DNA of 32,000 nt from the NCBI GenBank assembly GCA_900234795.1, contig LT962688.1:1170001-1202000 (forward strand). The letters are read 5' to 3'. Positions within the stretch are counted from its first letter, which is position 1, and every line of letters begins with the position of its first letter. The notes under the pieces are model-generated. The model searched no databases. It had not been told where the DNA came from and was given only the letters and a program-made list of their open reading frames with translations. The stretch comes from Methylorubrum extorquens (GTDB lineage Bacteria > Pseudomonadota > Alphaproteobacteria > Rhizobiales > Beijerinckiaceae). Both the position numbers and the translations under genes were made by a program. Of the stretch, positions 4,056 through 31,800 are shown in pieces.

Positions 4056-5688
4056 ATGGCGCGCACGACGATCTACGACCGCGATCTCGACCCGAATCCC
4101 GCGAACTTCCAGCCGCTCACGCCGCTGACCTATCTCGATCGCGCCGCCCGCACCTTCCCGGACCGCGTTGCGGTGATCCACGGGCCCTTGCGCCGCTCCT
4201 ACGCCGATCTCTACGCCCGCTGCCGCCGCCTCGCCGCGGCTTTGGCCGCCCGCGGCATCGGCCGCGGCGACACGGTGGCGGTGCTGCTCGCCAACACGCC
4301 CGCGATGATCGAGTGTCACTACGGCGTGCCGATGACGGGGGCGGTGCTCAACACCCTCAACACCCGCCTCGACGCGGCGGCTCTGGCCTTCTGCCTCGAC
4401 CACGGCGAGGCCAAGGTCTTCATCGTCGATCGCGAGTTCGCGCGGATCGGGCGCGAGGCACTCGACAAGGCCGGGGTCTCGCCCCTCGTCATCGATTACG
4501 ACGACCCTGAATTCACCGGAGACAGCGCGCCCGTCGGCGAGACCGACTACGAAGATTTCCTCGCCGCCGGCGATCCCGATTTCGACTGGGCGATGCCGGG
4601 CGACGAGTGGGACGCGATCTCGCTGAACTACACCTCCGGCACCACCGGCGATCCGAAAGGCGTGGTCTATCACCACCGCGGTGCGGCCCTACTCTCGCTC
4701 GGCAACGTCATCACCGCCGGGCTGCCGCAGCACGCGGTCTATCTCTGGACCCTGCCGATGTTTCACTGCAACGGCTGGTGCTTCCCCTGGACGCTCTCGA
4801 TCGTCGCCGGCACCCATGTCTGCCTGCGGCAGGTGCGGGCGCCCGCGATGTACGCGGCTCTGGCCGAGCACGGCGTCACCCACCTGTCGGGCGCGCCGAT
4901 CGTGATGTCGACGCTGCTGAACGCCCCCGAGGCGCAGAAGCACCCCCTTCCCCGCAGGGTCCACTTCCTCACCGCCGCCGCGCCGCCGCCCGAGGCGGTG
5001 CTCGCCGCCATGGGCGAGGCCGGCTTCGACGTCACCCATCTCTACGGCCTGACCGAGACCTACGGCCCGGCGGTCGTGAATGCGTGGCACGAGGATTGGG
5101 ATGCGCTGTCCCGCGACGAGCAGGCCAGGAAGAAGGCCCGCCAGGGCGTGCGCTACCCCGTTCTGGAAGGGCTCGATGTGCGCGACCCCGAAACGATGGA
5201 ATCCCCTGCCCGCCGACGGCACCAGCCTTGGCGAGGTGATGTTCCGCGGCAACGTGGTGATGCGCGGCTACCTGAAGAACCCGGCCTCGACCGAGGCCGC
5301 CTTCAAGGGCGGCTGGTTCCGCTCCGGCGATCTCGGGGTGAAGCATCTCGACGGCTACATCCAGCTGAAAGACCGCTCGAAGGACATCATCATTTCGGGC
5401 GGCGAGAACATCTCCTCAATCGAGGTGGAGGACGCGTTGTTCAAGCACCCGGCGGTCGCGGCCGCCGCCGTCGTCGCCAAGCCCGACGCGAAGTGGGGCG
5501 AGACGCCCTGCGCCTTCGTCGAGCTGAAGGAGGGGCGGGAGGCGACCTCGGAGGAACTGGTCGCATGGTGCCGCGAGCGGCTCGCCCCCTACAAGCTGCC
5601 GCGCCACGTGGTGTTCGGCGAACTGCCGAAAACCTCGACGGGCAAGGTGCAGAAGTTCGTGTTGCGGGAGAAGGCGCGGGAGGAGTGA
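4056..5688 (+). pseudogene. Acyl-CoA synthetase / AMP-dependent ligase (ANL superfamily), frame broken by one extra base near 5203-5206
   Basis: The N-terminal part is in the frame of ORF 4056 (YTSGTTGDPKGV, YGLTETYG). The C-terminal part is in the frame of ORF 5080 ([36 protein letters not shown]). The switch lies between ..DPETME and [16 protein letters not shown]. The span is 1633 nt, which is 3n+1. Removing one C from the C4 run gives a continuous 543-aa protein. Confidence 0.85.
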
Positions 5689-5743: not shown

Positions 5744-6107
5744 TCACTCCACGCCCAATTGCTGCGCGGCGCTCATGATCGCGGTCATGCGGTAGGGCTT
5801 CATCACCAGGACGCTCTCGCTCACCTGCCGGGGCTGCTCGGCGCTGTAGCCGGTCACGTAGATCACCGGCAGGGCCGGGTGCAGCACGCGCGCGCGCTCG
5901 GCGAGGTCCCAGCCGTCGAGCTGGCCCGGCAGGCGGATATCGGTGAACAGGAGATCGACCCGCCCGGCCCCCCTGGAGCAGGCCGTAGGCCTCTTCCGCG
6001 GTGCCGGCGCTGAGCACGGCGAAGCCGGCATCCTCGAACTCCATGGTCACGGCGCTGAGCAGCATCTCTTCGTCCTCGACGACGAGCACCGTCCGCTTGT
6101 CGGCCAT
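5744..6107 (-). pseudogene. Single-domain CheY-like response regulator, frame broken in a C6 (coding-strand G6) run at 5968-5973
   Basis: MADKRTVLVVEDEEMLLSAVTMEFEDAGFAVLSAGTAEEAYGLLQG is in one frame and AGRVDLLFTDIRLPGQLDGWDL...VIYVTGYS...VLVMKPY is in the next. An SD-like GGAGG lies upstream of ATG 6105-6107. The span is 364 nt (3n+1). G5 instead of G6 restores a 120-aa receiver. Confidence 0.8.
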
Positions 6108-6196: not shown

Positions 6197-6242
6197 GCAT
6201 CATCTTTTTCCGAAAGCCGCTGGCCACCTTTCAGGATGATGC
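6197..6242. repeat. Palindrome-ended intergenic repeat, copy A (GCATCATC ... GATGATGC)
   Basis: gcatcatctttttccgaaagccgctggccacctttcaggatgatgc. The 8-bp terminal inverted arms are exact. Confidence 0.75.
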
Positions 6243-6259
6243 TCTTCGCTTTCGTTCTT

Positions 6260-6306
6260 GCATCATCTTTTTCCCGCAAGCCGGCGACCACCTTCCGGGA
6301 TGATGC
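6260..6306. repeat. Palindrome-ended intergenic repeat, copy B
   Basis: gcatcatctttttcccgcaagccggcgaccaccttccgggatgatgc. It has the same orientation as copy A and lies 17 bp from it. It ends 1 nt before the kinase stop codon (TAA, 6308-6310). Confidence 0.75.
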
Positions 6307-6307
6307 T

Positions 6308-7561
6308 TTAGCCCGCGACCGCCACCGGCGGCAGGAGCGGCGCAAAGCCCGGTTCGGCAACCGGGGCCTGACGCACTGCCGGACGGCTCACGGCCGGCGC
6401 CTGCGCCGGGAAAGACAGGCGCACCGTCGTTCCGGGCCTGCCGTCGCGCACGAAAGCGGCGCTGCCGCCCGATTGCTGCGCGAAGCCGAACACTTGGCTC
6501 AGCCCCAGGCCGGTCCCCTGCCCCAACGGCTTCGTGGTGAAGAACGGCTCGAAGGCCCGCGCCTCGACCTCCGGCGCCATGCCGGCTCCGGTGTCGGACA
6601 CTTCGACGGCGAACCCGTCGCCTTCGGGCAGGGGCCGGGTGGCGAGGGTGAGCGTGCCGCCCTCCGGCATCGCATCGCGGGCGTTGACCGCGAGGTTGAG
6701 GATCGCGCTCTCGAACTGGTTCGGATCGATCCTCACCCGCGGCAGGTTCGGGGCGAGATCGGTCTCCAGCCGGATGCGCGGGCCGATCGTGCCGCGCAGG
6801 AACTCGGCGAAGGAGGCGATCTGCGCGTTCACGTCGGTGCTGACCGGGGAGAGCGGTTGGCGGCGGGCGAAGGCCAGCAGCTTGTGCGTCATCGTCGCCG
6901 CCCGCTCGGCGCCCTTCACCGCATCGCGCAGGCGCGTGCGCAGGGGGCTCGCCTCAGGCAGGCCGCGCTCGACCCGGTCGAGGTTGAGCAGCACCACGTT
7001 GAGCAGGTTGTTGAAGTCGTGGGCCACGCCGCCGGTGAGCTGCCCGATCGCCTCCATCTTCTGGCTCTGGCGCAGGGCCTCCTCGGCCCGCGCGCGCTCG
7101 GCATTGGCGGCCTCCAGGGCGGCGAGCGCCGCGTCGCGCTCAGCGATACGGGCCTGCAGCGCCTCGTTAGCCTGCCGGAGTTGGGTCGGAGACGGCAAGG
7201 TCAGCGCCTTCGGGATCAGGACCCAGAGTGCCACCGCCGTGCCGATAGAGGCCATGCCGGTGATGAGCTTGACCGCGGCTTCGAGCCCGTAATCCGGCAC
7301 CCAGAGCGTCCAGATCGCCATGAGATGCGTCGCGCCGCAGGCGGTGATGAACACCGCGAACGACCAGAACATCCAGCCGAACACCACGTCGCGGCGGCGG
7401 GACACGAAATAGGCCAGTCCGACGGGGATCGAGAAATAGGCGAAGGCGATCAGGCTGTCGGAGACGACATGCGTCCAGATCAGCTCCGGACGCCACAGCA
7501 GACAGATGCCGTGGGGCGAAAGGTTTTCGACCTCCCACAGCCGCCGCAGAAGTTCGAGCAT
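6308..7561 (-). CDS. Sensor histidine kinase with N-terminal ETR1-like ethylene-binding membrane domain
   Basis: The C-terminal half has an H-box (QLTGGVAHDFNNLLNVV), N-box (LNLAVNARDAM), G1 (DTGAGM), F-box (FEPFFTTK) and G2 (GTGLGLS). The N-terminal part, SDSLIAFAYFSIPVGLAYFV..FAVFITACGATHLMAIWTLW, matches ETR1 [38 protein letters not shown]. I prefer the start at ATG 7559-7561 (MLELLRRLW). The track start at 7615 is an alternative. Confidence 0.85.
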   Translation of the reverse strand: MLELLRRLWEVENLSPHGICLLWRPELIWTHVVSDSLIAFAYFSIPVGLAYFVSRRRDVVFGWMFWSFAVFITACGATHLMAIWTLWVPDYGLEAAVKLITGMASIGTAVALWVLIPKALTLPSPTQLRQANEALQARIAERDAALAALEAANAERARAEEALRQSQKMEAIGQLTGGVAHDFNNLLNVVLLNLDRVERGLPEASPLRTRLRDAVKGAERAATMTHKLLAFARRQPLSPVSTDVNAQIASFAEFLRGTIGPRIRLETDLAPNLPRVRIDPNQFESAILNLAVNARDAMPEGGTLTLATRPLPEGDGFAVEVSDTGAGMAPEVEARAFEPFFTTKPLGQGTGLGLSQVFGFAQQSGGSAAFVRDGRPGTTVRLSFPAQAPAVSRPAVRQAPVAEPGFAPLLPPVAVAG

Positions 7562-7621
7562 CAACCCCGGTCCCCCGCTCCGCCGCGCACGATCCCGAAG
7601 GCTGCGCAGGCCCATGCGACA

Positions 7622-7662
7622 GCATCGTCCCGAAAGATGGCCCCAGGCTTTCGCGACGATGC
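7622..7662. repeat. Palindrome-ended intergenic repeat, copy C (inverted relative to A/B)
   Basis: gcatcgtcccgaaagatggccccaggctttcgcgacgatgc. It aligns with the reverse complement of copies A and B and has terminal arms GCATCGTC/GACGATGC. It lies just upstream of the kinase gene. Confidence 0.65.
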
Positions 7663-7858
7663 TCGAACAAAAATCCGCGGCATCGCTCCGGGTTCGATTT
7701 CCAGGACGAGGCCCGAGACATGAACGATCGGGCGCGCCGGCGAATGCGGCCTGCCCTCACCCCAAATCTCTACGCGAGACACCGGCGCCGACCAAACATT
7801 AAGTCTTACTTAACCCTATTCGCTCATCACCGAGGGTGGCTTTCGAGGGCGGGCGCGA

Positions 7859-9259
7859 GTGTCGGCGCAACGGGCAATCACGCAGGTTGAGGCTTCGCAA
7901 AGGGCCGTGCAGGGAGTCTTGCAAGGCGCCTCGCAGGGAGCCCCCGACGCGGCCTTGCAAGAGACGCCGGCCGACGCGCCCCTACGGCGCATCAGCCTCG
8001 GCAGCCTGCTGTCCGCCACGGCGCGGCGCCATCCCGACCGGATCGCGGTGGTCGACCCTGCCGACAAGCCGGATTGGAGCGACCGGCCCGCCATCACCTG
8101 GACCTATGCCGCGGCCGCCGAGATCGTGGAGCGCCTCGCCCGCGGCCTGCGGAGCTGGCGCCTGCCGCCGGGAAGCCGCATCGGCCTGTGCCTGCCGGGC
8201 TCGGCCGAGAGCGCGCTGGCGATCCTCGCCGTCGAGGCCGCCGGCCACGTCGCCTGCCTGCTCCCGGTCTCCTGGGATGAAGATCGCCTGCTTGCCGCGG
8301 CGCAGAACGTCGCGCTGAGCGCGGTGCTGACTCAGGCGCGGCTCGGCTCCGCCGCACCCGCCGAGCGCCTCTGCGCCGTCGCCGCGCGCTATTTCGGCCT
8401 GCGCTACCTCGCCGCCTTCGGCCCCGACGTGCCGGATGGGGTGATCAATCTCGACCGGTTCGTCCTCGACGGCCCTGCCGGAGAGCCGGCCGGACCGGCA
8501 CCCGCCGCGGCCGGCATCGTCAGCTTCATCGGCGGCGACCCCGAGCAACCGGTCTACCGCAGCGGCGAATCGGTGGTGGCGGCGGCGGCCGCCCATCTCG
8601 TGGCGATGCGGGTCGCGCCCGCCGAGCGCATCCTCAGCCTGATCGGCCCGCACGACCTGCGCGGCCTTGCCACCGGGCTCGCAGCGGCCCTCGTCGCGGG
8701 GGCCACGCTAGAGACGCTGCCGCTGTTCGATGGAGCCGCCTTCGCGACGGCCCTGCGCCGGCCGGGCCCGACGCATCTCGTCGCCCCCGCCTTCCTCGAA
8801 AAAAACCTCGCCGGCCGCGACCTGCCGACGGATCTGCGCTCCGTCGCCCTGGTGCACCGGGCGCCGGTCCGCTTCCCCAGCCGCAGCCGCGCCGTGGACC
8901 GGCCGCAGGGCCTGCGCCTCGAGACGGTGATCGACACCGTCGCCTTCGACGAGACGGCAATCCTCTCCGGCCGGCGCGGGACGACGGGCGACCTCTCGCT
9001 GGTGCTCGGCAAGCCGGAGCGGCTCGCCCTTCCCGCCGCCCTGCTGTCCATGAGGCGCGGCGCGGACGATCGCCTCGCCTTCCGCGGCCAAGCCTGCACC
9101 GTGACGCCGTTGCAGCGCGGAAATCGGCAGGCGATCCCGAGCGGGGTGTGGCAGGAGACGCCTTACGCGCCGGTGCTGTTCGCGGGCATCGCCACCGCGA
9201 TCGAGGTCGTGGAGCCGTCCGATTCCGCCGGCTCCCCAAAAATTTTTGCGCCTGCGTAA
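7859..9259 (+). CDS. Degenerate ANL-superfamily (AMP-binding-like) protein lacking canonical adenylation motifs
   Basis: The ORF has high GC3. Its N-terminal region matches ANL enzymes (LGSLLSATARRHPDRIAVVD...ITWTYAAAAEIVERLARGLRSW..PGSRIGLCLP). The P-loop position reads SFIGGDPEQPV instead of [ST]SGTTGxPKG. I found no YGxTE motif and no C-terminal subdomain motifs. The GTG start at 7859 is uncertain. Confidence 0.55.
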   Translation: MSAQRAITQVEASQRAVQGVLQGASQGAPDAALQETPADAPLRRISLGSLLSATARRHPDRIAVVDPADKPDWSDRPAITWTYAAAAEIVERLARGLRSWRLPPGSRIGLCLPGSAESALAILAVEAAGHVACLLPVSWDEDRLLAAAQNVALSAVLTQARLGSAAPAERLCAVAARYFGLRYLAAFGPDVPDGVINLDRFVLDGPAGEPAGPAPAAAGIVSFIGGDPEQPVYRSGESVVAAAAAHLVAMRVAPAERILSLIGPHDLRGLATGLAAALVAGATLETLPLFDGAAFATALRRPGPTHLVAPAFLEKNLAGRDLPTDLRSVALVHRAPVRFPSRSRAVDRPQGLRLETVIDTVAFDETAILSGRRGTTGDLSLVLGKPERLALPAALLSMRRGADDRLAFRGQACTVTPLQRGNRQAIPSGVWQETPYAPVLFAGIATAIEVVEPSDSAGSPKIFAPA

Positions 9260-26402: not shown

Positions 26403-26601
26403 TCAGGCGTTCGTGCGCCCGCGGTGATCGGGATCGACTCCGCCCTCCGGCGTGGTCTCGTTCTCGACATCACCCTCGAAGGTGGAATCTCCCCTCGATC
26501 GCCTCCGGGTCGGTTCCGGTCAGCCCCTTCGACTGCCCGATGCCCGGATTGCCCTTCAGGTCGGCATCGCTCGGCGTATCCGTCTTCAGATGCTTCGACA
26601 T
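26403..26601 (-). pseudogene. Small acidic protein (about 65 aa), frame broken in the C4 run 26491-26494
   Basis: MSKHLKTDTPSDADLKGNPGIGQSKGLTGTDPEAIEG continues sensibly only in the next frame (DSTFEGDVENETTPEGGVDPDHRGRTNA, stop at 26403-26405). The span is 199 nt (3n+1). Confidence 0.55.
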
Positions 26602-26750: not shown

Positions 26751-27646
26751 TCACGGCGCCTGCGGCGTCGTGTCCTCCCGCTGCGCCCGGCGCAGGACGT
26801 CGAGCAACGCGCCCTCGATGAGCAGGGCGGAGCCGTAATGGAACTCGATGTCGAAGGCATGCCGGGAGTTCATGGAGAGCGAGGCGCTCTGCATCGCGAC
26901 GAGCCGCCCCGCCTCGTCGAACAGGCCCGAGCCGGAGCCGCCGTAGCCGTCGTTGCAATCGTGGCGGGCCCGCCGGATGCCGCCTTCCGTCGGCGGGTCG
27001 ATCCGGCGCACGGTGCAGGTCTCCAGGCTGCTGTCGCCCCGGTAGTTCTGGTGGCCGCCGGGGGCGACCAGGGTCACGGCGAGAGACAGGTCGCCGGTGG
27101 AGAGGGCGGGGGGGGCGCATCGGGCACCGGCTGGCGCGGCGCCTCGGCCGGTCGCACGAGGCGCAGCAGCGCCCAATCGTCGGTGATGTGGAGGCGCGTC
27201 GCGTCCGCGGCGACGCCGAGATGCAGGCTCTCGGCGACGAAATCGTAGTTGCGGCCGCCGATCTGGAAGTAGCAGTCGCCGACGGCCCGCGTCGTTTCGA
27301 GCTGCCGGTTGCGGAAGTTGTGCGCGTTCAGCATCACGAGCGACGGCGTGCCGATCAGCCACGCGGCGGCCGCCTTCTGCGGCACCCCGTCCGAACGGCG
27401 GCACCAGAGGACGCCCGCGCCGGGATAGCGGGCGCGGTCGCTGCTCGTCAGGTCGCGGCGCCCGTCCTGGGGATAGAGCGCCGCCGTTTCGGTGATGTCC
27501 CGTGCGCGCTCTCGGGTCGGGGCTGGGGAAACGGGCAGCGGGTGCGGCGCATCGTCTCCGAGTGCGGTACCGCCCCCGGCCCAAACCACGAGGGCGAGGA
27601 GCCCGCACACCGCCAGCCTCCCCTGCGCGCGCTGCCCCTGCGCCAT
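26751..27646 (-). pseudogene. mxaW: Secreted trypsin-like (S1, Trypsin_2-type) serine peptidase at the mxaW position, frame broken at G8 tract 27108-27115
   Basis: ATG at 27644-27646 follows GGGAGG. A signal-like N-terminus is present (MAQGQRAQGRLAVCGLLALVVWAGGGTALG). The His motif LIGTPSLVMLNAHNF and the Asp motif DDWALLRL are in frame A, and the Ser motif GYGGSGSGLFDEAGRLVAMQS is in frame B. The span is 896 nt (3n+2). The gene symbol is assigned only from position, divergent from mxaF as published for M. extorquens AM1. Confidence 0.7.
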
Positions 27647-27907: not shown

Positions 27908-28016
27908 TCATGATGCGGCACTTCGGATGACTTCCGAGCGGGCCTGGAACCTCAGAAAAACGTCTGAGAGATACCGCGAGGCCGAAAGGCGAGGCGGTTC
28001 AGCGAGGAGACGCAGG

Positions 28017-29897
28017 ATGAGCAGGTTTGTGACATCAGTCTCGGCCTTGGCGATGCTGGCGCTCGCGCCGGCCGCGCTGTCGAGCGGGGCCTACGCCAAC
28101 GATAAGCTGGTCGAGCTGTCGAAGAGCGACGACAACTGGGTGATGCCCGGCAAGAACTACGATTCGAACAACTTCAGCGACCTGAAGCAGATCAACAAGG
28201 GCAACGTGAAGCAGCTTCGGCCGGCTTGGACGTTCTCGACCGGCCTGCTGAACGGCCACGAGGGTGCGCCGCTCGTCGTCGACGGCAAGATGTACATCCA
28301 CACCTCGTTCCCGAACAACACCTTCGCTCTCGGCCTCGACGATCCGGGCACGATCCTGTGGCAGGACAAGCCGAAGCAGAATCCGGCCGCCCGCGCCGTC
28401 GCCTGCTGTGACCTCGTCAACCGCGGCCTCGCCTACTGGCCCGGCGACGGCAAGACCCCCGCGCTGATCCTCAAGACCCAGCTCGACGGCAACGTCGCCG
28501 CCCTCAACGCCGAGACCGGCGAGACGGTGTGGAAGGTCGAGAACTCCGACATCAAGGTCGGCTCGACGCTCACGATCGCCCCCTACGTCGTCAAGGACAA
28601 GGTCATCATCGGTTCCTCGGGCGCCGAGCTCGGCGTGCGCGGCTACCTGACCGCCTACGACGTGAAGACCGGCGAGCAGGTGTGGCGCGCCTATGCCACG
28701 GGTCCGGACAAGGACCTGCTGCTGGCCTCCGACTTCAACATCAAGAACCCCCATTACGGTCAGAAGGGCCTCGGCACCGGCACCTGGGAGGGCGATGCCT
28801 GGAAGATCGGCGGCGGCACCAACTGGGGCTGGTACGCCTACGATCCGGGCACCAACCTGATCTACTTCGGCACCGGCAACCCGGCGCCGTGGAACGAGAC
28901 CATGCGTCCGGGCGACAACAAGTGGACGATGACGATCTTCGGCCGCGATGCCGATACGGGTGAAGCCAAGTTCGGCTACCAGAAGACCCCGCACGACGAG
29001 TGGGACTATGCCGGCGTCAACGTCATGATGCTCTCCGAGCAGAAGGACAAGGACGGCAAGGCCCGCAAGCTGCTGACCCACCCGGACCGCAACGGCATCG
29101 TCTACACGCTCGACCGGACCGACGGCGCGCTCGTCTCGGCGAACAAGCTCGACGACACGGTCAACGTGTTCAAGTCGGTGGATCTCAAGACCGGCCAGCC
29201 GGTGCGCGATCCCGAATACGGCACCCGGATGGACCACCTCGCCAAGGACATCTGCCCCTCGGCGATGGGCTACCACAACCAGGGTCACGACTCGTACGAT
29301 CCGAAGCGTGAACTGTTCTTCATGGGCATCAACCACATCTGCATGGATTGGGAGCCCTTCATGCTTCCCTATCGTGCGGGTCAGTTCTTCGTCGGTGCGA
29401 CGCTGAACATGTATCCGGGCCCGAAGGGCGACCGTCAGAACTACGAAGGTCTCGGCCAGATCAAGGCGTACAACGCGATCACCGGCGACTATAAGTGGGA
29501 GAAGATGGAGCGCTTCGCCGTGTGGGGCGGCACCATGGCCACCGCGGGCGACCTCGTCTTCTACGGCACGCTCGACGGCTACCTGAAGGCGCGCGACTCC
29601 GACACGGGTGATCTTCTCTGGAAGTTCAAGATCCCGTCCGGCGCCATCGGCTACCCGATGACCTACACCCACAAGGGCACGCAATACGTCGCCATCTACT
29701 ACGGCGTCGGCGGCTGGCCGGGTGTGGGCCTCGTGTTCGACCTCGCCGACCCGACCGCCGGTCTCGGCGCGGTGGGCGCCTTCAAGAAGCTCGCCAACTA
29801 CACCCAGATGGGTGGCGGCGTGGTGGTGTTCTCGCTCGACGGCAAGGGTCCCTACGACGATCCGAACGTCGGCGAGTGGAAGTCGGCCGCCAAGTAA
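28017..29897 (+). CDS. mxaF: PQQ-dependent methanol dehydrogenase large (alpha) subunit, Ca-type
   Basis: ATG at 28017 follows GAGGAGA. A signal peptide ends ..[13 protein letters not shown]. The vicinal Cys pair (VACCD) and the catalytic region [11 protein letters not shown] are present; DYAG is the Ca-type MxaF pattern, not the XoxF pattern DYDG. The gene is followed by mxaJ, mxaG and mxaI. Confidence 0.97.
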
Positions 29898-29937
29898 GGC
29901 CTGAAGCCGGAACTGCCTGACGGCAGATGCGAACCGC

Positions 29938-29963
29938 CCCTTCCCCGCTCATTCGGGGGAGGG
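29938..29963 (+). other. GC-rich stem-loop 40 nt after the mxaF stop
   Basis: CCCTTCCCCG-ctcatt-CGGGGGAGGG forms a 10-bp stem with one G-U pair. There is no U tract. Confidence 0.5.
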
Positions 29964-30161
29964 ACGGGGCCCAGATGGCGCGGGCACGAACGGCCCGTGA
30001 CGGTCCGCGCCACCTCATGTCCCTCTCCGCAGACCCTCGTCCCGCGCGCCGCCGACGTCGCGCAGGCGATCGTCGGCACGGGGAGATGCGCCAAGGGCAG
30101 GTCTCAGCCGAAAAAGCCCGGCGCCAAGATTTCATAAGAATAAGCCAGAGGAAACGAACCT

Positions 30162-31064
30162 ATGTCGCTCGTGAACGGACGGCGCCGTACAGCCGCATCG
30201 GTCGTCGCTCTGACCGCTGCCCTGACCGCCTTCGCCGCCCTGTGCGCACCCGCCCAGGCGCAGGACACGAAAGCCACCTCGAAAGCCGCCGAGGCCGCGA
30301 AACCCGATGCCGGGACCTTGCGCGTCTGCGCCGCCGAGCAGCCGCCACTCTCGATGAAGGACGGCTCGGGGCTGGAAAACCGCATCGCGACGACGGTGGC
30401 CGAGGCCATGGGCCGCAAGGCCCAGTTCGTATGGCTCGGAAAGCCCGCGATCTACCTCGTGCGCGACGGGCTGGAGAAGAAGACCTGCGACGTGGTGATC
30501 GGGCTCGATGCCGACGACGCCCGCGTGCTGACCAGCAAGCCCTATTACCGCTCGGGCTACGTCTTCCTCACCCGCGCCGACAAGGATCTCGACATCAAGT
30601 CCTGGTCCGATCCGCGCCTGAAGGACGTCAGCCACATGGTGGTCGGCTTCGGCACGCCCGGCGAGGCGATGCTCAAGGATATCGGCCGCTACGAGGAGGA
30701 CATGGCCTACCTCTACTCGCTGGTGAACTTTCGCGCGCCGCGAAATCAATACACGCAGATCGATCCGGCCCGAATGGTGAGCGAGGTCGCCACCGGCAAG
30801 GCCGAGGTCGGCGTGGCCTTCGGGCCCGACGTCGCCCGCTACGTGCGCGACTCCTCGACCAAGCTGCGCATGACCCCCGTGCCCGACGACACGCAGGCCA
30901 GCGACGGACGGAAGATGCCGCAGAGCTTCGACCAGGCGATGGGCGTGCGCAAGGACGACACCGCCCTGAAGGCGGAGATCGACGCCGCCCTGGAGAAGGC
31001 CAAGCCGAAGATCGAGGCGATCCTGAAGGAGGAGGGCGTGCCCGTGCTGCCCGTCTCCAACTGA
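30162..31064 (+). CDS. mxaJ: MxaJ, periplasmic solute-binding-like protein of the methanol dehydrogenase system
   Basis: 300 aa with ATG after GAGGAAA and a signal peptide ending ..CAPAQA/QD. It occupies the position between mxaF and mxaG. Confidence 0.9.
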   Translation: MSLVNGRRRTAASVVALTAALTAFAALCAPAQAQDTKATSKAAEAAKPDAGTLRVCAAEQPPLSMKDGSGLENRIATTVAEAMGRKAQFVWLGKPAIYLVRDGLEKKTCDVVIGLDADDARVLTSKPYYRSGYVFLTRADKDLDIKSWSDPRLKDVSHMVVGFGTPGEAMLKDIGRYEEDMAYLYSLVNFRAPRNQYTQIDPARMVSEVATGKAEVGVAFGPDVARYVRDSSTKLRMTPVPDDTQASDGRKMPQSFDQAMGVRKDDTALKAEIDAALEKAKPKIEAILKEEGVPVLPVSN

Positions 31065-31206
31065 TCCCGACCGAGAGCCGTATCCGACCTGATGGCATCA
31101 GGCCGGCGCCTCTAAATCTTTGTTTTAACACGCTTTCTTTCGCAGAACCGGCGCCCACTTCGTCGGAAAGCGTCCTAAACGTGTGCTGAGGACCAAGAAC
31201 AAGACG

Positions 31207-31800
31207 ATGATGAACCGCGTAAAGATCGGAACCGCCCTTCTCGGCCTCGCGCTCGCCGGCATTGCCCTGCCCGCGCTCGCCCAGCCGCAATCCGGGCCGC
31301 AGACCGGCGTCGTGTTCCGCAACACCGTGACCGGCGAGGCGCTCGACGTGTCGCAAGGCAAGGAGGGCGGCCGCGACACGCCCGCCGTGAAGAAGTTCCT
31401 CGAGACCGGCGAGAACCTCTACATCGACGACAAGTCCTGCCTGCGGAATGGCGAGAGTCTGTTCGCGACCTCCTGCTCGGGCTGCCACGGCCACCTCGCC
31501 GAGGGCAAGCTCGGGCCGGGTCTGAACGACAATTACTGGACCTACCCGTCCAACACCACGGATGTGGGCCTGTTCGCCACGATCTTCGGCGGCGCCAACG
31601 GCATGATGGGCCCGCACAACGAGAATCTGACGCCCGACGAGATGCTTCAGACCATCGCCTGGATTCGCCACCTCTATACGGGGCCGAAGCAGGACGCCGT
31701 CTGGCTCAACGACGAGCAGAAGAAGGCCTACACGCCCTACAAGCAGGGCGAAGTCATCCCGAAGGACGCCAAGGGCCAGTGCAAGCCGCTGGACGAGTGA
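31207..31800 (+). CDS. mxaG: Cytochrome cL, electron acceptor of methanol dehydrogenase
   Basis: A signal peptide (..LPALA/QPQ) and the single heme motif CSGCH are present. I chose the start at the ATGATG at 31207 rather than the track GTG at 31183. Confidence 0.9.

Follow-up and report, generated by a model that had tools for sequence, protein, structure and literature searches.

Ethylene receptors have been described from plants, cyanobacteria and proteobacteria, and the characterised bacterial member that comes closest to the gene reported here is AzoEtr1 of Azospirillum brasilense. Binding of 14C-ethylene has been shown for the N-terminal 130 residues of AzoEtr1, and cells in which its gene is disrupted no longer bind the gas (PLoS Genet 2025, PMC11819568). 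Its D35A and C75A mutants were designed as variants predicted to lack ethylene binding, and in Azospirillum ethylene reduces biofilm formation and root colonisation (PMC11819568). SynEtr1 (slr1212) of Synechocystis is a kinase that signals to a response regulator; it has additional domains and senses light as well. The plant receptors (Arabidopsis ETR1 and ERS1, among others) combine a three-helix, copper-dependent ethylene-binding domain with a histidine-kinase-like domain, and their signalling proceeds chiefly via CTR1, not by phosphotransfer. Here we analyse a stretch of 32,000 nucleotides from Methylorubrum (formerly Methylobacterium) extorquens (assembly GCA_900234795.1, contig LT962688.1, positions 1,170,001 to 1,202,000; hereafter the window), which contains a gene for a sensor histidine kinase followed by a separate receiver gene (Table 1). 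We consider it likely from the sequence that this protein is a membrane sensor kinase of a two-component system with a true ethylene-binding domain as its input.

By profile and alignment, the input part of the kinase is a true relative of the sensing domain of plant ethylene receptors. The PF25487 (ETR1_N) model is covered in full (positions 1-97 of 97) by residues 26-122; the score is 131.8 bits (E = 1.1e-38), where the cut-off is 27. In a BLASTP comparison with one plant ethylene receptor (P0126), 36% of the residues are identical in an alignment of 101 (E = 2e-18). The initial annotation had proposed a gap-free alignment to ETR1. We compared the domain with plant receptors taken from the databases, which were collected by a profile search and agree with ETR1: P0122, P0125 and P0126 (‘ethylene receptor’), P0133 (‘probable ethylene response sensor 1’ of Elaeis) and P0146 (‘ethylene receptor 1s’ of Mangifera). 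The absence of gaps holds for helices 1 and 2, the stretch originally quoted, but the alignment with P0126 places one gap of three residues in the loop that joins helix 2 to helix 3. Membrane segments have a biased composition, which calls for general caution, and the similarity to ETR1 could in principle be a chance resemblance of hydrophobic helices. We regard this as practically negligible and refuted by the profile score, by the BLASTP values for P0126 and for AzoEtr1 (E = 3e-52), and by the conservation of polar and charged key residues.

Seven residues of ETR1 (D25, Y32, I35, P36, I62, C65 and H69) were reportedly shown by Wang and colleagues in 2006 to be needed for ethylene binding. 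In an alignment of ten sequences these correspond to D35, Y42, I45, P46, I72, C75 and H79 of the kinase, respectively, and ETR1 K91 corresponds to K98. The equivalents of Asp25, Tyr32 and Pro36 named in the initial annotation are hence conserved, and so is the proposed pair of Cu(I) ligands, since C75 and H79 fall on C65 and H69 in the plant receptors and on C75 and H79 in AzoEtr1. The two putative copper ligands are located in helix 2 with a spacing of i, i+4, while D35 and K98 lie in helices 1 and 3; all eight residues are invariant across 71 bacterial species. Functional domains of this kind have been defined by seven such binding residues (PMC11819568), and the roles of ETR1 Asp25, Cys65, His69 and Lys91 have been described (PMC10266040). 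Binding of both copper and ethylene by the domain is accordingly what its family membership and key residues predict.

An AlphaFold2 model built from an alignment of 50 sequences (mean confidence, pLDDT, 78.6) shows two short N-terminal helices, three long helices, a break, one further long helix, a second DHp helix and an alpha/beta catalytic domain. The three long helices of the ethylene-binding domain span residues 25-55, 62-87 and 91-120, and they agree with three peaks of hydropathy. Positive charge is found in the first loop (SRRRD) and is missing from the second; together with the three predicted helices this pattern fits a topology with the N-terminus outside and the C-terminus inside. 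A search by sequence and by profile for a solved structure of the ethylene-binding domain returned none, only weak noise from G-protein-coupled receptors.

Ahead of helix 1, and outside the Pfam ETR1_N model, the protein carries a P-H-G-x-C-x-x-W motif, which is invariant in the proteins of the 71 species and in the 50 close homologues and is shared by AzoEtr1. Plant receptors have CxC at this place, and the single invariant Cys20 of the kinase aligns with this N-terminal CxC, whose cysteines in ETR1 (C4 and C6) link the dimer by disulfides. The motif may contain a dimerisation cysteine or an additional metal site. No description of it was found in the literature consulted, and it may be a small new item.

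The sensor domain had been called plant-type, a label that does not hold: identity is 49-61% with the domains of proteobacteria and cyanobacteria and only about 35% with those of plants, so that the domain is of the bacterial type. The cyanobacterial ethylene-binding proteins have the same PHGxC motif and 49-59% identity in this domain, a comparison with the SynEtr1 group that was made through other cyanobacterial members. The plant receptors share the three-helix domain with all key residues, but at about 33-36% identity only, and their loop between helices 2 and 3 is three residues longer. Plant receptors moreover have a GAF domain, and ETR1 also a fused receiver, whereas the M. extorquens kinase has neither.

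On sequence comparison, AzoEtr1 is the closest characterised relative among the matches listed. Its ethylene-binding domain is 59% identical to that of the kinase over residues 16-145 (130 residues, gap-free), and D35, C75, H79 and K98 have identical numbers in both proteins. Both are alphaproteobacterial, have a histidine kinase output and are followed by a gene for a single-domain receiver. In the Azospirillum brasilense locus recovered by our scan of one genome per species, a protein of 525 residues is encoded together with an overlapping receiver of 135 residues, as described in the AzoEtr1 paper, and this receiver is comparable to the M. extorquens one (34% identical). The differences concern the output. 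AzoEtr1 has a PAS domain between its sensor and kinase, which is lacking here; the kinase cores are only 29% identical, with the H-box AHEMSQPLN in AzoEtr1 and AHDFNNLLN in M. extorquens; and the AzoEtr1 receiver gene overlaps the kinase stop, whereas a gap of 200 bp with two REP-like repeats separates the genes here. AzoEtr1 is also the one that has been characterised experimentally. The AzoEtr1-type order of ethylene-binding domain, PAS, kinase and receiver gene is thus not matched: as far as the sequences tell, the sensor is shared and the output module is not.

The arrangement proposed at the outset, an ethylene-binding domain joined through a coiled coil to a HisKA/HATPase kinase with a separate receiver gene behind it, agrees with the profiles, the AlphaFold2 model and the comparison of neighbourhoods. 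In the model a single continuous helix runs from residue 125 to 200 through His181 (pLDDT up to 96), and the second DHp helix comprises residues 207-232. P117, P123 and S124, at and near the break that precedes the long helix, are invariant in the 50 close homologues, as are H181 to N185. The same homologues share N293, D323, G325, G327 and the motifs FFTTK and GTGLGLS without variation, except for F341, which is nearly invariant, and T350. The set of kinase motifs (H, N, G1, F and G2 boxes) is accordingly intact at the level of sequence.

The kinase core matches the crystal structure of CckA (5idj) at 1e-46, and the DHp and catalytic domains resemble CckA and PRK13557-type cores, with a match to NCBIfam PRK13557 at 3e-72 that covers part of the model only. 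The kinase subtype is all that is held in common; the protein has neither the PAS domains nor the fused receiver of that type. We reject an identification as CckA, because the scores are far under the equivalog cut-offs (244 against 631 and 213 against 1000). A separate observation concerns P0037, a protein of 655 residues with PAS domains encoded on a single Logan contig of 4971 bp. Its C-terminal 263 residues share 98% identity with residues 155-417 of the kinase. The junction lies at the conserved lead-in to the H-box, and the protein is either an assembly chimera or the result of a recent domain swap.

The open reading frame given for the kinase in the initial annotation is present in the window with the same translation, and the protein is 99-100% identical to an ‘ATP-binding protein’ of M. 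extorquens. A longer reading frame could begin at an ATG at 7615, but the ATG at 7561 corresponds to the start of the homologues and of AzoEtr1, and a purine-rich stretch lies just upstream of this ATG. The Pfam profile scan detected no GAF, PAS or Response_reg domain in the protein (GAF and Response_reg up to E = 1), in agreement with the earlier statement that GAF and receiver domains are lacking. A sigma-70 scan found no promoter, and the one terminator-like site lies on the opposite strand and is uninformative.

Table 1. Features of the kinase locus (positions in the window)
Feature	Positions	Strand	Basis
Sensor histidine kinase gene, 417 residues	6308..7561	-	Open reading frame and translation; Pfam ETR1_N, HisKA, HATPase_c
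P-H-G-x-C-x-x-W motif, residues 16-23	7493..7516	-	Invariance in homologues; plant alignment
Ethylene-binding domain proper (predicted), residues 26-122, three membrane helices with D35, Y42, I45, P46, I72, C75, H79, K98	7196..7486	-	PF25487; residue alignment; AlphaFold2; hydropathy
Signalling helix / coiled-coil linker, residues 125-172, after L-P-S-P break at 121-124	7046..7189	-	AlphaFold2; invariant residues
DHp / HisKA domain, residues 173-235, phospho-accepting His181 in GGVAHDFNNLL	6857..7045	-	HisKA 25.6 bits; 5idj match
Catalytic ATP-binding domain, residues 279-387, N, G1, F and G2 boxes	6401..6727	-	HATPase_c 1.3e-16
Single-domain response regulator gene, 120 residues when intact, split by extra G at about 5973	5744..6107	-	Response_reg profile divided between two frames; CP021054.1 comparison
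Two tandem REP-like palindromes filling the kinase-receiver gap	6197..6307 (6197-6243, 6260-6307)		Repeat families D1, D6
Third REP-like palindrome copy, upstream of the kinase gene	7621..7663		Repeat families I6, D1; pattern search

The receiver was expected as a stand-alone gene about 200 bp downstream, and it does start at 6107, 200 bp past the kinase stop. In other genomes the pairing recurs: in nine further genomes, which belong to several genera, the kinase gene is followed immediately by a receiver gene in the same orientation, and kinase-receiver pairs occur in Methylorubrum podarium and M. zatmanii, three Methylobacterium species, Astrobacterium, one Beijerinckiaceae and one Novosphingobium genome, with gaps between the two genes from about 12 to 200 bp across the genomes compared. 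The receiver has the acidic pocket, D56, T85 and K103. Its position and these residues suggest that it is a conserved partner gene of the kinase, with phosphotransfer predicted between them. CpdR is its best receiver-only NCBIfam match, but the score is far under the cut-off.

In the window, one extra G in the G run at 5968-5974, seen against the complete genome CP021054.1 (99.85% identical), splits the receiver gene. If this insertion were real, the receiver could be a true pseudogene and the kinase an orphan with no working output, a decaying system of which the Response_reg profile spread over two frames would be the visible trace. We find such decay quite improbable. An intact receiver (120 residues, or 152 in an alternative call) is present in all five of the other contigs examined, of which four (L002-L005) carry an identical kinase and the fifth (L001) one that is 99% identical, and the kinase reading frame in the window is itself intact, with a protein identical to that of other strains. 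The window has further insertions with the signature of sequencing error. A second extra base relative to CP021054.1, at about 5206, parts the AMP-binding domain from the C-terminal domain of an acyl-CoA synthetase (4056-5688, forward strand) that is intact (543-545 residues) in related genomes, and relative to three independent read-based assemblies there are extra bases in C and G runs at 26491 and at 27108-27109, the latter within a gene of the Trypsin_2 family. The frameshifted products of the receiver and acyl-CoA synthetase genes are not on record in public assemblies. Taken together, the four homopolymer sites contain five extra bases within about 23 kb, which are probably errors of sequencing or assembly and not biology; because of the four bases inserted elsewhere, the receiver frameshift, too, is probably such an error.

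The domain itself is far from rare. A profile scan of one genome per species placed it in at least 597 species genomes (597 of 600 stretches confirmed), with Methylorubrum, Methylobacterium, Bradyrhizobium, Sphingomonas, Novosphingobium, Azospirillum, many cyanobacteria, Acidobacteria, Verrucomicrobia and one Methylococcaceae, besides others, among the matches listed. With residues 1-135 as the query, an exhaustive HMMER search returned 8361 cluster representatives at E <= 1e-3, of which 1618 reach E <= 1e-30. Among 71 full-length relatives the kinase ATPase domain is present in 68, a fused receiver in 36, PAS in about 33, GAF in two and GGDEF/EAL in one, and the minimal sensor-kinase form is found repeatedly and in several lineages. 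Homologues that retain the sensor region already bear the precomputed label PF25487, while the NCBI name is merely ‘ATP-binding protein’. The remark in the initial annotation that such domains are noted in some proteobacteria is thus correct as to their occurrence in bacteria, but they are neither rare nor newly seen, as many bacterial members exist, are labelled in Pfam and, in one alphaproteobacterium, are functional. The finding is correct but falls within a known large family, of which the M. extorquens kinase, by its domain content, is an uncharacterised member. Earlier surveys reportedly noted such genes in many plant-associated proteobacteria, and together with the Azospirillum work this means that a specialist would not be surprised. 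A full-text search of the literature found no paper that ties Methylobacterium or Methylorubrum to an ethylene receptor, published taxon surveys being outside that search.

Besides ethylene, ETR1 binds further strained alkenes and pi-acceptor ligands. The domain of the kinase might hold copper but respond to something different from the ethylene of a host. Candidates are another small unsaturated or pi-acceptor molecule (CO or an alkene other than ethylene), the redox state or copper status of the membrane, and ethylene of microbial or photochemical origin; the reading as a plant hormone sensor would then fail although the fold is correctly assigned. The breadth of the distribution is in line with this, since many of the species come from soil, groundwater and aquatic lineages with no known plant association, and so is the variety of outputs (PAS, fused receivers and GGDEF/EAL) to which the domain is joined. 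The AzoEtr1 authors themselves allow that the ethylene could be a microbial instead of a plant signal (PMC11819568). We nevertheless hold a different signal to be unlikely, because all ethylene-binding residues are invariant and the members tested in the cited papers (ETR1, SynEtr1 and AzoEtr1) bound ethylene, although neither point is informative on the source of the ethylene. On the side of the host, M. extorquens is a coloniser of leaf surfaces and is exposed there to plant ethylene.

Several points weigh against the view that the kinase is a working ethylene sensor directed at the host. The HisKA match, at 25.6 bits, is slightly under the Pfam cut-off of 26.9, and the frameshift in the receiver gene, if real, would leave the pathway broken in this strain. 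As the domain is also found in many bacteria not known to be associated with plants (among them Acidobacteria, Verrucomicrobia, Methylococcaceae and groundwater genomes), neither its natural ligand nor the source of that ligand need be tied to a plant host. With a kinase core so divergent from that of AzoEtr1 and no PAS domain, moreover, the output logic is not simply transferable.

If the kinase is an ethylene sensor, as we favour, it would dimerise in the inner membrane, where the three membrane helices of each subunit would hold Cu(I) through Cys75 and His79 of helix 2, with Asp35 of helix 1 assisting. Ethylene, which is readily soluble in membranes, would bind the copper, and the change would pass through an Asp35-Lys98 bridge to helix 3, the LPSP break and the long helix that bears His181. 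Autophosphorylation at His181 would be altered, and by analogy to ETR1 and SynEtr1 ethylene probably lowers it; phosphotransfer to Asp56 of the 120-residue downstream receiver would then shift correspondingly. Since the receiver has no output domain, it would have to act by protein contacts or through a further relay; the counterpart in Azospirillum governs biofilm formation and the colonisation of roots. We infer both this direction of kinase control and any physiological output.

Some features of the surroundings remain to be described. The three REP-like palindromes follow the pattern AGCATCATCC...GGAAAAAGATGATGC, for which a search of the window gave three matches against 0.03 expected; the repeats fold as strong hairpins (z = -2.9) that lack a U-tract. 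Two of them fill the space between the kinase and receiver genes, which in several other species measures no more than 12-60 bp. Two of the related contigs have a ParE-toxin gene pair between the receiver and acyl-CoA synthetase genes (L001, 5831-6333; L003, 5831-6342), which is absent from the window and from CP021054.1. The divergent neighbour of the kinase (7859-9259, forward strand; 466 residues) matches only the first third of an AMP-binding domain (residues 53-173) and has no C-terminal domain, and it keeps its position in all related loci.

At the end of the window lies a methanol-oxidation cluster with mxaF, mxaJ and mxaG at 28017-31800 (region 27927-31800). The mxaF gene extends from about 28017 to 29897, with its true start probably at an internal ATG near 28017, and its product has the Ca-type DYA motif; mxaG encodes cytochrome cL (CSGCH). 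The proximity of these genes to the kinase had been pointed out earlier, and they are indeed present about 20.4 kb away, but the functional meaning attached to this distance is not retained. We reject a functional link because unrelated genes intervene (mfd, recG, DUF502, glmS, glmU and a gene of the metallo-beta-lactamase fold).

A more far-reaching and tentative proposal, which we think possible but rather doubtful, is that M. extorquens perceives the ethylene of its host by this minimal receptor and the receiver, and switches its colonisation behaviour (for instance attachment, biofilm or stress readiness) with plant stress or ripening, the PHGxCxxW motif perhaps being a second functional site, for instance for periplasmic copper acquisition or disulfide dimerisation. 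The general picture is unchanged, because the wide occurrence and the function of ethylene-binding domains in bacteria had been established before. If the kinase works as predicted, a bacterium that lives on leaves and is genetically tractable would be able to sense a plant gas hormone directly, which would extend the Azospirillum finding from the root to the leaf surface. The kinase would also offer the simplest known architecture (a sensor, one helix and a kinase) in which to study how the binding of ethylene comes to control the kinase, for a domain of which no structure exists.

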